Shown: positions 1-9,000 of the stretch, in pieces | Numbering within the stretch: position 1 is the stretch's first letter | Layout: every line of letters starts with the position of its first letter | NCBI RefSeq assembly: GCF_004353825.1 | Contig: NZ_SMNA01000015.1 | Location: forward strand, 1-64,000 | Reading direction: 5' to 3' | DNA from: Occultella glacieicola | Lineage (GTDB): Bacteria > Actinomycetota > Actinomycetes > Actinomycetales > Beutenbergiaceae | Length of the DNA stretch: 64,000 bases | Made by a program: the position numbers

Positions 1-3000
1 GAACCGGCCGGAGGTGTCCCAGGTCCCGGCCTCCTGCTCGGCGCCCATCCAGTCCAGCACCGCACCGGTCAGGGCCTCGGTGACCCTGTGAGCGCGGGCC
101 GCAGCCCCACCCAGGAACCGGGACCCGTACCGATCGGACTCCTCGACCGGATCGACAAGATTGATCGTCGCGGTCAACGCCTCCAACGCGACAAGCTGGT
201 CCTCCAGGGAACCGGTCAGCAGCTCACTCAGGGGCAGATGCGCACGGGACGCGAGCGCCACACCCACACCCGACACACCACCGGCCCCGGTGCCGGTGCC
301 GGTGGTTGTGGTGTCGTCCATGGATGCTCACCTCCCCGCGAGTGCCGATCAAGCTCGGACGGATGTTCGATCTGGTCCCACCCTAGAACACCCCACCGAC
401 AACGCCAGATCCCGGATTTCCCTTGTGGATACAGGGCAATCGGGCCCTCAAACCACCCCACCCGGGCGCCAGAAACGCAGCCCCGATGACATCCCGTCCA
501 CAGGCTGGGACCGGTTCGCTCCGTTCAAGTCGCATGCTTGTGGTACCCGAACCGCCCCGGGGTGATCGCCCCGGTCGCGGCCTTCCTGGGCGCCGAGGAC
601 TGTCCCTGGCCGGCCAGGTGACGAGCTGCGCGGCGGGACCGCGGTGCTCCCGTGCGGCTGGGCAACGCGTCCGGCGGTCCGCGCGGGGCCCTCGGGGCCG
701 AGCCTCTGCGCGGGCGAGCGACCGTGGACCGTCGAGCGCCTCGGCCACGAGTCGCCGGGCTGCCGGTCCTCGATCCCTTCGAGCGGCTCGCCGACGCCCT
801 TAGCGGCGCACTCGGGCCGATCGACACCGAGCAGGGTCGCGCGTCGCCGCGCAGGGGACTGATCGCGCGGGAAGGAACACTGTGCCCGGCCTCTCAGCGG
901 CGCCTGACCGGGCGCTGCAAGCCCAGCGCGGCCCGGTCAGTTCCGCATGAAGCGGCCTGGTCAGTTCCGCATGAATCGGAGACGCCAGGCCTGGGGGCCC
1001 TGCTCGACGTAGGTCACCGCGAACGCGCCCGGCTGCCGCTGCTCCAGCTGGGCCAGCAGCGGCAGCGGGTCGTGGGGCGCGACGAGGATCATCGAACCGC
1101 CCGGGCGCACCGCGTCCAGGGCGCCGAAGATCGTCGCGTGCCGGATCGCATGGGGCACCGCTCGAGCGTCCAACTCCGGCTCGGGGGCCTCGGTGCCGCC
1201 GCAGGCGCAGGCGTGGCGGGCCCCGTGCTCGACGGCGGGGGTCGGGTCGGGTGTGTCGGTTCCGAGGGCGGGGCCCGGGTCGGGTGTGTCGGTTGCGAGG
1301 GCGGGGCCCGGGTCGGGTGTGTCGGTTGCGAGGGCGGGGCCCGGGTCGGCCGCGCCGGTTCCGACGGCGGAGCCCAGGTCGGGAGCGTGCGTTACGTGGG
1401 TCGTGGGCGTGGTGAGGGCATGGGCGACCTCCGCCAGGGAGACCCCCGGCAGCGCGGCGAGCGCGGGCAGCAGGTGGTCGTCGACATCGGCGAGATGGGC
1501 GGTGGTCAGCGCCGTCAGCGCGCCGGCCGCGGCGACGCCGGCGATCGGGTCCGGGGCGTGCGCGAGGGACTGGGCCGCGCCGACGATGCCACCCTGCTGC
1601 GCCGTCAGGGTCTGCGCGAGCAGCCGGGTCCGGTCGTGCTCGCCGGCCCGGGCGAGGGCGCCCGCGGCCAGACGGGTCAGGTGTGGTAGCACGACCGTCG
1701 CCGTGAACTCCTGCACCTCACGCCGCGCCGACTGGGCCGCGGCGGGGTCGCCACCGGCCGCCGCGAACAGGGCATCCGTGCGCGCCCGCAGCGCGGACCC
1801 GAGTTCGGCGTGCCGGGCACGGATCTCCTCGACGGCGTTGGCGTCCGCCTGGGTGGTGGCGACTACGAGCGTGGTCATGGCTTCCTCCGGACGTGGTGTG
1901 CGATCGCTCGAAACTTTATTACACTGTATTCCGTGATAATTAATCGAGGTCGGCCGACGGACCTGGGACCCCGGCCGATGCCGCGGCCGACGCCCGTGCG
2001 CGCACCGATGAGTACGGCCCGCGGCGCGGTCCTGGACCTCCTGGCGCAGCAGTCCGCCCCGTGTACCGTCGGCTCGCTCGCGCAGGCACTGCACCAGCAC
2101 CCCAACACCGTGCGCGAGCACCTCGACGCGCTCATCGACGCCGGGCTGGTCACGCGCACCCGGGCCCCCGCCGAGGGTCGGGGTCGGCCCGCCTGGCTGT
2201 ACGAGGCCTCCGAGCCGGAGCCGCCGATGGCGACCCAGGAGTACGTCGGCCTGGCCACCGCGCTCGCGGCGCAGATCGCTCGGACCAGCACCGACCCGCA
2301 CCGGGACGGGGTTACCGCCGGGCGGCACTGGGGTCAGGAACTGGCCCGTCAGGCGGCGGCCCGGCAGGCGGCAGGCGGCAGCCTCCCGCCCGGGACGGCT
2401 TACGACGAGGTGATCGACACCCTCGACGGGCTCGGGTTCGACCCGGAGCCGGAGGATGGCTCCGACGTGGTCCGGCTGCGCCGCTGCCCGCTCCTCGAGG
2501 CCGCCCACCGCCACGAGCGCGTCGTCTGCGGCGTGCATCTGGGCATGGTCCAGGGCCTCTTGGAGGAGTCCGGTGCGACGGCGGCGGGGGTCCGCCTCGA
2601 GCCGTTCGCCGAGCGCGGGGCCTGCCTGCTCCACGTGCCCGAGGACCCGCCGGCGACGGCGCGCTGACCGTGGTGCGACGCCTCGTCCTCCTGCTCCCGG
2701 CCGGTCTCGCGCTCCTCGCCGGCCTGAACGGCGCGCTGCTGCTCCTCGGGGTGCCCGCACCGGTGACGTCCGGGCGGCTCGGCGACGGTCACGGGATCCT
2801 CCTCGCGCTCGGCTTCGTCGGCACCGTGGTCGCGCTGGAGCGAGCCGTGGCGCTGCGCCGCCCGCTCGCCCTCGCGGCGCCGGCGCTGACCGGTCTGGGG
2901 GCGCTCGCGCTGATCGTCCCGGCCCCGCCGGCGCTCGGCCGTGCGCTCCTGGTCGCGGGGATGCTCGCGCTCGGCGGGATCTGCGTGCCGCTCTGGCGCC

Positions 3001-6000: not shown

Positions 6001-9000
6001 ACGGCCACCCGGTCCGGGATCTGGCTGTACCACTGCGCGACGATGCCGATGAGCGCGCACATCGCGAACGGCATGTTCGGGGCCGTGATCATCGACCCGC
6101 CGGGCCTGGCGCCGGTGGACCGGGAGTACATCCTGGTCCAGTCGGAGTACTACCTCGGGGAGCAGGGCGGCGAGGTGGACACCGCGAAGGTGGCCGCAGG
6201 GCAGGCGGACCTGGTGGTCTTCAACGGGTACGCGAACGCCTACGACCATGCGCCGCTGGCGGCGGTCACCGGCGAGCGGGTCCGGATCTGGGTGCTCGCG
6301 GCCGGGCCGAACCGGGGCACGTCGTTCCACGTCGTCGGCGGCCAGTTCGACACCGTGTTCGCCGAGGGGGCCTACCTGCTCACCCCGGACGAGCCCACCG
6401 GCGGCGGCGCCCAGACGCTCGCGCTCGGCGCCGCCCAGGGCGGGTTCGTGGAGCTCGTGATGCCACAGGCCGGGCACTACCCGATGGTCAACCACGTGAT
6501 GAGCGATGCCGAGCGGGGTGCGCACGGCATCCTCGAGGTGAGGGACCCGTGACCGGATCGGCGGCGCCGACGACGGCCGCGAGGGTGCCAGACTGGTCCC
6601 GTGACCGACACCGCGACCACCCCCGCAGCGCTGCCCGGCTGGCGGCACACCTACTCCGGCAAGGTCCGTGACCTGTACGTGCCCGACGGCGGTGCCACCG
6701 ACGTCGACGTCGTACTGGTGGTGGCCAGCGACCGGATCAGTGCCTACGACCACGTGCTGCCGACCACGATCGACGACAAGGGCGCGGTGCTCACCGCGCT
6801 GAGCCTGTGGTGGTTCGAGGAGCTCGGCCCGATCGTGGCCAACCACGTGGTCTCCCTCGACGTGCCCGACCAGGTCGCGGGCCGGGCCATGGTCTGCCGG
6901 AGGCTGCAGATGTACCCGGTGGAGTGCGTGGCCCGCGGCTACCTCACCGGCTCCGGGCTGCTCGAGTACCGGGAGACCGGCGAGGTGTGCGGGGTGCCGC
7001 TGCCGGCAGGGCTCGTGGACGGCTCCCGGCTGCCCGAACCGATCTTCACGCCGGCCACCAAGGCCGCCGTCGGGGAGCACGACGAGAACGTCTCGTTCGA
7101 GGTGATCGCGGCCCAGGTGGGCGAGGACGTCGCCACCCGGCTGCGGGACACCACCCTCGCCGTCTACGCCCACGCCGAACGGGTCGCGGCCGATCGCGGC
7201 GTGATCCTGGCGGACACCAAGCTGGAGTTCGGCACCGACCCGGTCACCGGGGACCTGGTCCTCGGTGACGAGGTGCTCACCCCGGACTCCTCGCGGTACT
7301 GGCCGGCCGACCAGTGGCAGCCGGGTCGGGCCCAGCCCAGCTTCGACAAGCAGTTCGTGCGGGACTGGCTGTCCGCGCCGGAGTCCGGCTGGGACCGCGC
7401 CTCGGACACTCCGCCGCCGCCCCTGCCCGCGGACCTCGTGGCCCGCACCCGGGCCCGGTACGTCGAGGCGTACGAGCGGATCACCGGACTGACGTTCGGC
7501 GCCTGAGCGAGCCATGCGCGCCGCGGTGCTGGTCGAGGGGCGCAGCGACAGTGCCGCGCTCGAACGCCTCGCCGCCCGCCGCGGGCGGGATCTGGCCGCC
7601 GAGGGTGTGGCCATCGTCGGGATGGGCGGCGCCACGAACATCCGCCGGTACCTCGAGCTCCTCGGTCCCCGCGGGCAGGGCCTCGCCCTCGCCGGGCTGT
7701 GCGACGCGGCCGAGGTGGGCTACTTCCGGAGGGGACTGGCCGCCGTCGGGCTCGGCTCGGACCTGAGCCTCGCCCAGATGCGGGCGCGCGGGTTCCACGT
7801 CTGCGTGGCCGACCTCGAGGACGAGCTGATCCGCGCGCTCGGCACCGACGCCGTCGAGGCCGTCATCGCCGACCGCGGCGAACTGAACTCGTTCCGGACC
7901 ATGCAGCGCCAGCCCGCACAGCGTGACCGCCCGCTGGAGGCTCAGCTTCGCCGGTTCCTCGGCACCCGCGGCGGGCGCAAGATCGCCTACGCACCGGCGC
8001 TCGTCGACGCACTGGACCTGGCCCGCGTGCCCGCCCCGCTCGACGGGGTGCTCGCCGCGGTCTGAGGGCGACGGCGGCCGGTAGGATCGGGAGGTCCACC
8101 CACCTTCTCAAGTCCAGGGAGTCCCGCTCAGATGGCACGTGTCGTCGTGGAGATCATGCCGAAGCCGGAGATCCTGGACCCCCAGGGCAAGGCGGTCGCC
8201 GGCGCCCTGCCGCGGCTCGGGTTCACCGGCTTCGCGTCCGTGCGCCAGGGCAAGCGGTTCGAGCTCGAGGTGGAGGGTGAGGCGACCGAGGAGGTTCTCG
8301 CCGCGGCCCGCAAGGCCGCCGCCGAGGTGCTCTCCAACCCGGTCATCGAGGACGTCGTCTCGGTGCACGTCGCACCGGTCGCACAGGAGGACTGATGGCC
8401 CGCATCGGTGTGATCACGTTCCCCGGCAGCCTCGACGACGGAGACGCGGCCCGGGCGGTGCGCCTGGTCGGAGCCGAGCCCGTGCGGCTGTGGCACGCGG
8501 ACGACTCCCTCGCCGAGGTTGACGCCGTCATCCTGCCCGGCGGCTTCTCCTACGGCGACTACCTGCGGGCCGGCGCGATCTCCCGGTTCGCGCCCGTCAT
8601 GGGGGCCCTCGTGGACGCCGCGAACGGCGGGCTGCCGGTCCTCGGGATCTGCAACGGGTTCCAGATCCTGTGCGAGTCCCACCTGCTCGCCGGCGCCATG
8701 ATCAAGAACGAGCGGCTCACGTTCGTGTGCAAGGACCAGACCCTGCGGGTGGACAACAACTCGACGGCCTGGACGAACGAGTTCGCAGCCGGCGAGGAGA
8801 TCGTCGTCCCGCTGAAGAACCAGGACGGGCAGTTCATCGCCGACGACGCCACCCTCGACGAGCTCGAGGGGGAGGGCCGGGTCGTGTTCCGGTACGTCGG
8901 CAACCCGAACGGCTCACGCCGGGACATCGCCGGCATCACGAACGCCCGCGGGAACGTGGTGGGCCTGATGCCGCACCCCGAGCACGCCGTCGAGGCCGGG

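Follow-up and report, generated by a model that had tools for sequence, protein, structure and literature searches.

A copper nitrite reductase fused to a membrane module with a predicted heme-copper oxidase fold in Occultella glacieicola, and its candidate role as a heme relay

The window analysed here is a stretch of 64,000 nucleotides of Occultella glacieicola (contig NZ_SMNA01000015.1, positions 1 to 64,000), and the putative nitrite reductase operon lies near its start with the following features.

961..1878, minus strand: divergent gene of 305 aa, with a degenerate hemerythrin-like N-terminus and a C-terminal DUF2249 domain (translation and DUF2249 match).
1916..1939, plus strand: candidate operator, the pseudo-palindrome TTAYTAC-N10-GTGRAAA, intergenic to the divergent genes (pattern scan).
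2008..2667, plus strand: ArnR-like winged-helix regulator of 219 aa, with C160, C174, H177 and C206 (HTH_20).
2670..3803, plus strand: g00700, a protein with a predicted 12-helix heme-copper oxidase (HCO) fold (fold match at Z 27.8 and residue conservation); outer H41 and H265, which would sit where low-spin heme b is bound, and inner E57, E158, E161, D215 and H279.
3805..6552, plus strand: g00701, 915 aa, a fused membrane domain, anchor helix, cupredoxin and two-domain copper nitrite reductase (CuNiR).
3889..5094, plus strand: membrane domain of g00701 (aa 29-430), predicted 12-helix HCO fold, probably circularly permuted, with invariant H68 and H200.
5173..5229, plus strand: thirteenth helix of g00701 (aa 457-475), basic residues N-terminal to the helix (hydropathy).
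5272..5559, plus strand: cupredoxin of g00701, type 1 copper ligands H534, C568, H573 and M578 (Cupredoxin_1).
5755..6540, plus strand: NirK core of g00701, type 1 copper ligands H704, C744, H752 and M757, type 2 copper ligands H709, H743 and H897, catalytic D707 and H842.

Translation gave the two membrane genes as the genome-wide survey's note had described them: g00700 encodes 377 aa, g00701 is open throughout, and the pair meet at TGA C ATG, with one base between stop and start and AAGGA just 5′ of the start. The gene content in that note stands, but it did not mention the ArnR-like regulator, the candidate operator or the DUF2249 gene on the opposite strand. The regulator has the winged helix, three conserved Cys and the His expected of ArnR (C160, C174 and H177 in 57/57 homologues, C206 in 55/55). 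Of 54 regulator homologues, 32 have the operator pattern upstream, and the whole genome holds one strong site (35.3 bits; runner-up 13.7). The divergent gene matched DUF2249 at E 1e-25 and gave no Hemerythrin match in the domain search; homologues with both hemerythrin and DUF2249 domains occur in 16/53 related loci.

The copper-binding part of g00701 carries type 1 and type 2 copper ligands and the catalytic Asp and His, as a copper nitrite reductase should; these role labels we take from established knowledge of CuNiRs. All of these residues were conserved in 68/68 homologues, save M757 (62/68), and the four cupredoxin ligands were each present in 49/49. The best PDB match was the Hyphomicrobium three-domain CuNiR 2dv6 (E 1.6e-48), with whose N-terminal cupredoxin that of g00701 aligns; the match of the core to TIGR02376 (E 1.3e-46) fell below cut-off. 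The linker at aa 612-624 is His-rich.

A Pfam scan again returned Cupredoxin_1 (490-557) and Cu-oxidase_3 (658-766) and nothing for the N-terminal part of g00701, for which the survey had proposed 13 helices and the fold of HCO/NOR subunit I. Both proposals were supported. The AlphaFold2 model of aa 29-430 (pLDDT 87.4) retrieved HCO/NOR chains at all of ranks 1-10 of a structure search, led by 3mk7_A (Z 32.4, rmsd 3.3, 380 aa) and with Z dropping to 12.0 at rank 11; the g00700 model (pLDDT 89.2) did likewise (top match Z 27.8, rmsd 3.6, 347 aa; rank 11 at Z 11.3), and Foldseek concurred (best E 3.1e-4). Internal repeats were seen, and both models have 12 helices with the three-fold pseudo-symmetry of an HCO/NOR subunit. 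The thirteenth helix is predicted to carry the copper domains to the outside, and it is retained where the 12-helix domain has been lost. The earlier remark that likeness to COX1 is missing at sequence level is true of g00701 itself but not of its family: some homologues of the domain match Pfam COX1 below cut-off (2/27 and 7/73; best E 1.8e-6); for g00700, 3/31 homologues gave a weak NnrS match (best E 0.023). With profiles of 76 and 40 sequences of the two families, a PDB search at E<=10 brought up no HCO chain, and three SemiSWEET matches in it were taken as chance. The plasmid collection yielded nothing for the fused domain.

The set H56, H68, H141 and H200, earlier given as invariant, proved too wide: only H68 and H200 are so (195/195). 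Among 76 diverse homologues of the domain the counts were H68 76/76, H200 76/76, H141 65/76, H85 62/76 and H56 23/69; in 119 more divergent ones H68 and H200 were again complete, H85 was found in 118/119, and H141 and H56 were absent from the common residues. A second heme on H85/H141 as a family-wide feature was thus ruled out, H141 being lost in these 119. When the fused domain was aligned with g00700 in unit order 2-3-1, the alignment probability was 73% (local) and 93% (global), against 10% and 56% for the collinear order, and both His came into register, H200 at the helix II and H68 at the helix X low-spin heme position. The two are therefore best compared as a circular permutation, by which H68/H200 would land on the putative low-spin heme pair H265/H41. 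Support for the permutation came from the deeper whole-domain comparison alone, with g00700 as the counterpart; profiles of NnrS and qNOR gave none, and unit-by-unit hhalign was ambiguous, units 1 and 3 of the fused domain matching g00700 unit 3 equally.

In qNOR, His346 of helix II lies 7 residues before Trp353, the helix X His are at -7 and -5 from its Gly, and the helix VI His is at -5. The corresponding positions are H41 (-7) and H265 (-5) in g00700 and H200 (-7) and H68 (-5) in the fused domain, so that, judged by sequence register, g00700 directly and the fused domain after permutation would have a His at both low-spin heme positions, that of helix II and the second of helix X. The His census showed neither a His-His pair nor any third helix with a conserved His in the fused domain; g00700 has no helix 6 His, and its position 263 is Val. 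The binuclear-site ligands (helix VI His, helix VII His-His, first helix X His) are thus absent from both modules, and neither is a canonical NOR. The survey's statement that the domain lacks the canonical helix VII and X His holds as regards the binuclear site; its helix X part came from reading the helices in sequence order. H41, H265 and the five inner residues of g00700 are each conserved in 40/40 homologues and in 4/4 proteobacterial ones, and E57, E158 and H279 take the equivalent position, 9 after Gly, on three core helices. The two modules look like reduced kin of respiratory oxidases rather than nitric oxide reductases, and each probably holds one heme and passes electrons.

The co-occurrence sample comprised 351 genomes, 51 of them with full-length NirK; the membrane domain was present in 47/51 and fused to NirK in 44, so that the fused form is the usual NirK of Actinomycetes. 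Among 38 long relatives of g00700, 22 join g00700, cupredoxin and NirK, 8 hold both modules and NirK, and 7 hold both modules without the NirK core. Either module can therefore be fused to NirK, and both are also found without NirK in NO-stress gene clusters. In 8/8 unfused NirK loci examined there was a His-bearing membrane gene nearby or a contig end, and 5 had a 4-helix CopD-like gene. Neighbours in 53 loci included ArnR-like regulators (25), hemerythrin-DUF2249 (16), narG (13), narK (10) and hmp (3). The host genome has Nar and NirK, with neither qNOR nor globin found; its sole Cupredoxin_1 match is the fused one, no Copper-bind match or separate cupredoxin was found, and its sole PF13442 cytochrome c is a diheme protein near ctaD. 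PF05940 was found in 0/151 Actinomycetota genomes, but the positive control was likewise silent.

The best reading, to which we give a probability of roughly 0.4, is a heme b relay from menaquinol through the tethered cupredoxin to NirK. The locus would be an operon, responsive to NO, that serves a membrane-integral NirK. Both modules would be non-catalytic kin of HCO/NOR subunit I that resemble NnrS, and each would hold one bis-His heme b towards the outer face (H68/H200 in the fused domain, H41/H265 in g00700). Menaquinol would reduce the heme, as with the low-spin heme of qNOR, and electrons would pass to the cupredoxin and on to the type 1 copper of NirK, the relay taking the place of soluble carriers, cytochrome c or azurin, which are lacking in a monoderm cell. 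The putative partner g00700 would be of the same kind, usable also as a fused module, and its extra cytoplasmic Glu/Glu/His site may link electron relay with control of damage by NO or to iron. Alternatively, the donor could be the bc complex's diheme cytochrome c. Several results weigh against a relay. The membrane domain is dispensable, as 4/51 NirK genomes lack such a domain and unfused NirKs represent 6 changes on the tree; 10/59 domain-bearing genomes lack this NirK type (a family check of 9 gave nothing over cut-off), and in these the domain adjoins qNOR or narGHJI. Homologues of g00700 on four proteobacterial plasmids sit among NO-stress genes, nirK not being among those listed, and no quinol-binding motif was identified in the modules. 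In Hyphomicrobium NirK, the accessible text of PMC4770552 reports the N-terminal cupredoxin as too distant from the core for efficient transfer.

A close rival, though itself on the unlikely side, is that the modules are NnrS-like heme proteins that guard against NO damage to the iron pool and to Fe-S enzymes alongside DUF2249, hemerythrin-like and DUF59 proteins; NirK would draw its electrons from elsewhere, the fusion would merely site the defence at the NO source, and helix 13 would be the true anchor. Atlas links both modules to NnrS, and the NO-related neighbours counted above persist in 7/11 loci without NirK; proteobacterial g00700 homologues adjoin NnrS (3/4), DUF2249 (4/4) and a metal-sulfur cluster assembly factor (4/4), and in Variovorax NnrS occupies the place of g00701. 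NnrS itself, as given in the available part of PMC9246220, shields the iron pool from dinitrosyl complexes without removing NO, and the lack of any detected qNOR or globin in the host also speaks for this reading. This leaves unexplained, however, why the fusion is kept in 44/51 NirK genomes and why either module has been fused (4 changes on the tree), and when the modules were compared directly with four NnrS proteins by profile, next to no similarity was seen (probability <2%).

An improbable reading is a non-canonical NO reductase formed by g00700, either by itself or together with the fused domain, in which quinol would reduce the outer heme and this heme would feed a candidate cytoplasmic non-heme iron site (E57/E158/E161/D215/H279). 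The equivalent placing of E57, E158 and H279, invariant across two phyla, speaks for it, as does the presence of qNOR in only 10/53 genomes with this NirK; the missing binuclear ligands speak against it, in Cupriavidus a qNOR is found 5 kb away from the g00700 homologue, and the fused domain is positively associated with qNOR (12/59 with the domain, 11/292 without). The qNOR deficit with g00700 (4/30 vs 8/29) is not significant, and the related genomes are not independent. Replacement of qNOR by a module was likewise not supported by co-occurrence in the 351 genomes. We consider it a long shot that the modules serve NirK maturation by heme-dependent copper reduction or delivery: a small gene 3′ of NirK in 18 loci matches CopD weakly (E 1e-4, below cut-off), the linker at aa 612-624 is His-rich, and HxH and D312 covary in one subfamily, but g00701 lacks H202 and D312 and both modules occur without NirK. 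No better are the odds that g00700 joins the permuted fused domain in a unit with two hemes that feeds NirK from menaquinol and also reduces the resulting NO, using an iron site of a new kind made of the cytoplasmic Glu/Glu/His set; if so, it would be an unrecognised NO reductase, would account for the absence of qNOR from about four in five Actinomycetes with NirK, and would be a hidden source of N2O in soils.

Two questions are at stake, from where NirK draws its electrons when a cell has no periplasmic carrier, and how NO is handled in NirK-positive, Nor-negative actinobacteria. For a domain of the usual Actinomycetes NirK so far listed as of function unknown, one predicted heme site (H68/H200), together with the partner's putative heme site and cytoplasmic Glu/Glu/His site, turns these into point-mutant tests.

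The architecture is known from earlier publications. NirKs of ~900 aa are described in the accessible text of PMC4770552 and PMC5338063 for Propionibacterium acnes and Corynebacterium pseudotuberculosis; g00701 shares their length, the ~400-500 aa membrane N-terminus, 13 predicted helices, the cupredoxin CX4HX4M and the CuNiR core. The survey had thus set the novelty too high. As far as that text goes, the membrane domain is of "unknown function", with no fold, heme site or partner given, and in the open-licence literature we found no paper assigning it a fold or function. The regulator resembles ArnR of Corynebacterium glutamicum (winged helix, three Cys and conserved His), likened through the published description and not by sequence; ArnR has Cys179, Cys193 and Cys223 and a conserved His in the available portion of PMC12343034, at spacings of 14 and 30 as against 14 and 32 here. 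ArnR represses narKGHJI and hmp, whereas the motif here has one strong site, at this operon. With Hyphomicrobium 2dv6 the protein shares the cupredoxin and two-domain core, but 2dv6 is soluble and without a membrane domain. The predicted fold is that of qNOR/cNOR NorB and cbb3 CcoN, whose low-spin heme His register the modules would share; unlike these, they lack the helix VII His pair and the high-spin heme/FeB/CuB set, identity is 9-14%, and the fused domain is putatively permuted. Pei, Li, Kinch and Grishin (2014) reportedly defined HCO-homology (HCOH) proteins, NnrS included, as built of three units with 12 helices in all, carrying a pair of conserved His and a single heme, and found in a denitrification/NO context. 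Both modules have what that definition requires: the HCO fold, as predicted, and two conserved His, without the catalytic set. A link of HCOH to DUF2249 is given, second-hand, in the accessible text of PMC11218638. Neither module passes the Pfam cut-off of NnrS (PF05940; best 14.5 bits vs 28), and the helix II motif HxHEMxFG of NnrS proteins is absent from both. The two are nevertheless probably HCOH (NnrS-like) proteins, and what is new here is the circular-permutation alignment of the fused domain on g00700, which, judged from sequence, would place H68/H200 onto H265/H41.

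We re-examined the two reading frames of the genome-wide survey's note; both ran as claimed, with 1 base between them, and the locus was found to extend further, to a regulator, a pseudo-palindrome and a divergent DUF2249 gene upstream.

961–1878, (−) strand: divergent gene, hemerythrin-like part plus DUF2249
1916–1939: pseudo-palindrome, candidate operator
2008–2667: winged-helix regulator
2670–3803, (+) strand: g00700, membrane protein of 377 aa
3805–6552, (+) strand: g00701, 915 aa, membrane domain (aa 29–430, the fused domain), cupredoxin and copper nitrite reductase (NirK) core

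Regulator residues C160, C174 and H177 were conserved in 57/57 sequences and C206 in 55/55; the putative operator has one site in the genome, and its pattern recurred ahead of the gene for 32 of 54 regulator homologues. The hemerythrin-like part of the divergent gene had no Pfam match, and a short tandem repeat (~12 residues) stands ahead of its DUF2249. In 30 of the 33 loci retrieved by g00700, the fused domain came after it; the remaining 3 break off where their contig ends. The regulator was found in 28 of the 33. Purine genes lie downstream of g00701; between purC and purS sits an inserted gene (7514–8065, +) whose small product has an OLD-like TOPRIM domain. A gene start at 1–327 (−), its remainder off the contig end, may resemble DUF222/HNH-type proteins.

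Fresh independent models of the fused domain and of g00700 (together, the modules) both pointed to the heme-copper oxidase (HCO)/nitric oxide reductase (NOR) fold, which that note had proposed for the fused domain. Ranks 1–10 were HCO/NOR chains only for both predicted structures (Z 32.4, then 12.0, for the fused domain; Z 27.8, then 11.3, for g00700), and Foldseek was concordant. The helix VII His pair is missing from both modules, which therefore do not qualify as canonical oxidases or NORs. Deeper sampling (195 sequences) shrank the invariant set that had been listed for the fused domain: H68 and H200 remained, as its sole invariant His, and H56 (23/69) and H141 (65/76, rare in 119 divergent homologues) fell away; H85 was present in 180/195.

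Core helices of the HCO fold carry His at −7 or −5 relative to a conserved Gly; sampled quinol-type NORs (qNORs) have both on helix X, −5 on helix VI and −7 (His346) on helix II, where these positions have ligand roles. g00700 has H41 at −7 (helix 2) and H265 at −5 (helix 10), predicted from helix register to be a low-spin heme pair. In the fused domain, H68 at −5 (helix 2) and H200 at −7 (helix 6) would be the same facing pair displaced by one of the three units. E57, E158 and H279 of g00700 occupy one shared position on each of three core helices and, with E161 and D215, are invariant in 40/40 sequences and in 4/4 proteobacterial homologues; we infer that these inner residues form a cytoplasmic metal site. 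A divergent fused-domain subfamily (L075, L076, P0312–P0431) has HxH on helix 6 (111/119), resembling that of NnrS and CcoN, and D312 (103/119); proteins of this subfamily may hold an additional metal.

With its units ordered 2-3-1, the fused domain matched g00700 over its full length (probability 73% local, 93% global, versus 10% and 56% with units collinear), H200 landing on H41 and H68 on H265. Unit 2 of homologues mapped to unit 1 (5) or unit 3 (4) of COX1, the oxidase subunit I family, in all 9 Pfam COX1 matches, with collinear placement in 0/9. Because unit-by-unit comparisons were ambiguous and the two orders scored without clear preference against profiles of NnrS and qNOR, we regard circular permutation as probable only; relocation of the His pair would result in identical geometry.

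No copper ligand is missing from the g00701 NirK core, nor is either catalytic residue (Asp, His), and each was present in 68/68 related cores save M757 (62/68); H534/C568/H573/M578 of the cupredoxin were found in 49/49 relatives. The g00701/g00700 system is real and widespread. Among 351 Actinomycetes genomes, the fused-type domain was found in 59 (leaving out 2 weak short matches), g00700 in 32 (30 also with that domain), qNOR in 23 and full-length NirK of g00701 type in 51 (setting aside 2 contig-end fragments and 5 matches at 33–38%). The domain was carried by 47 of these 51, and fused in 44, as scored from locus sequences or from an open frame common to domain and NirK matches. The 38 long g00700 relatives (~5 look frameshift-garbled) comprised g00700+cupredoxin+NirK (22), both modules with NirK (8), both modules (6), both with cupredoxin (1) and g00700 only (1); records named as Georgenia, Rhizomonospora and Nonomuraea are among those with four-part fusions. 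When 68 NirK cores were placed on a tree, g00700-fused forms required 4 changes and unfused forms 6. Of eight unfused NirK loci, five continue into a CopD-like gene whose 4-helix product has two conserved His, two had one module nearby and one began at a contig edge. This 146-aa CopD-like protein, possibly a small cytochrome b or copper loader, was seen immediately 3′ of NirK in 18 loci (L054–L097; e.g., L055:3411–3851, −) and is absent from the O. glacieicola genome. Four loci (L063, L064, L067, L096; e.g., L067:4759–5982) have a radical SAM/SPASM gene directly upstream of NirK and a nitroreductase gene downstream.

We favour, at roughly 40%, a heme b relay: menaquinol electrons would pass to heme b of the membrane module, and thence through the tethered cupredoxin to NirK. 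It is favoured because fusion is the rule and either module serves, because heme positions and copper domains are predicted to share a face, and because a soluble donor was not found in the genome (100% complete), where PF13442 matched a single cytochrome c, of diheme type, close to the one COX1-family gene. NnrS-like protection against NO and guarding of iron, itself less likely than not, is nearly as good an account, since both modules occur without NirK within NO-stress clusters and NirK also occurs without the modules. The Atlas ties both modules to NnrS clusters; NnrS function is described in PMC9246220. Without NirK, the domain stands immediately ahead of a qNOR gene or behind narGHJI; at L043:970–4533, what looks like a single operon encodes an ArnR-like regulator, the membrane domain on its own and a qNOR. 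Neither cupredoxin nor NirK was found in 100 of the best 150 domain representatives, many of which are probably fragments. Proteobacterial g00700 homologues, from 4 of 12 plasmid matches, neighbour NnrS, DUF2249, hemerythrin, an Fe-S assembly factor, YtfE, qNOR and hmp, with nirK not listed in these 4 loci; on a Variovorax plasmid (L121:6284–8634) the homologue is coupled to NnrS, and the pair adjoins an operon of unusual make-up for an oxidase and a cytochrome c. A non-canonical NO reductase seems improbable, and copper delivery about equally so. qNOR occurred in only 10/53 genomes with NirK of g00701 type, but was positively associated with the domain (12/59 versus 11/292 without it). The O. 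glacieicola genome has narG, with 0 matches to qNOR domain, globin or Copper-bind.

HCO-homology proteins were reportedly defined by Pei et al. 2014, and the g00700 and fused-domain families may already lie within that set; the proteins are also treated in PMC11218638 and PMC4602095, while PMC10927120 and PMC6710368 contributed nothing further. The architecture of g00701 is known, being that of the long actinobacterial NirK described in PMC4770552 (~900 aa, a 400-aa membrane domain of unknown function, a cupredoxin in every actinobacterial NirK) and PMC5338063 (882 aa, 13 helices). Added here are a predicted two-His heme site in permuted register, interchangeable modules, an inner site in g00700 and ArnR-like control, by which the open function becomes testable. 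The regulator agrees in its three-Cys pattern with ArnR, an NO-sensing [4Fe-4S] repressor according to PMC12343034, and the closest solved relative of the copper part of g00701 is the three-domain Hyphomicrobium copper nitrite reductase 2dv6.
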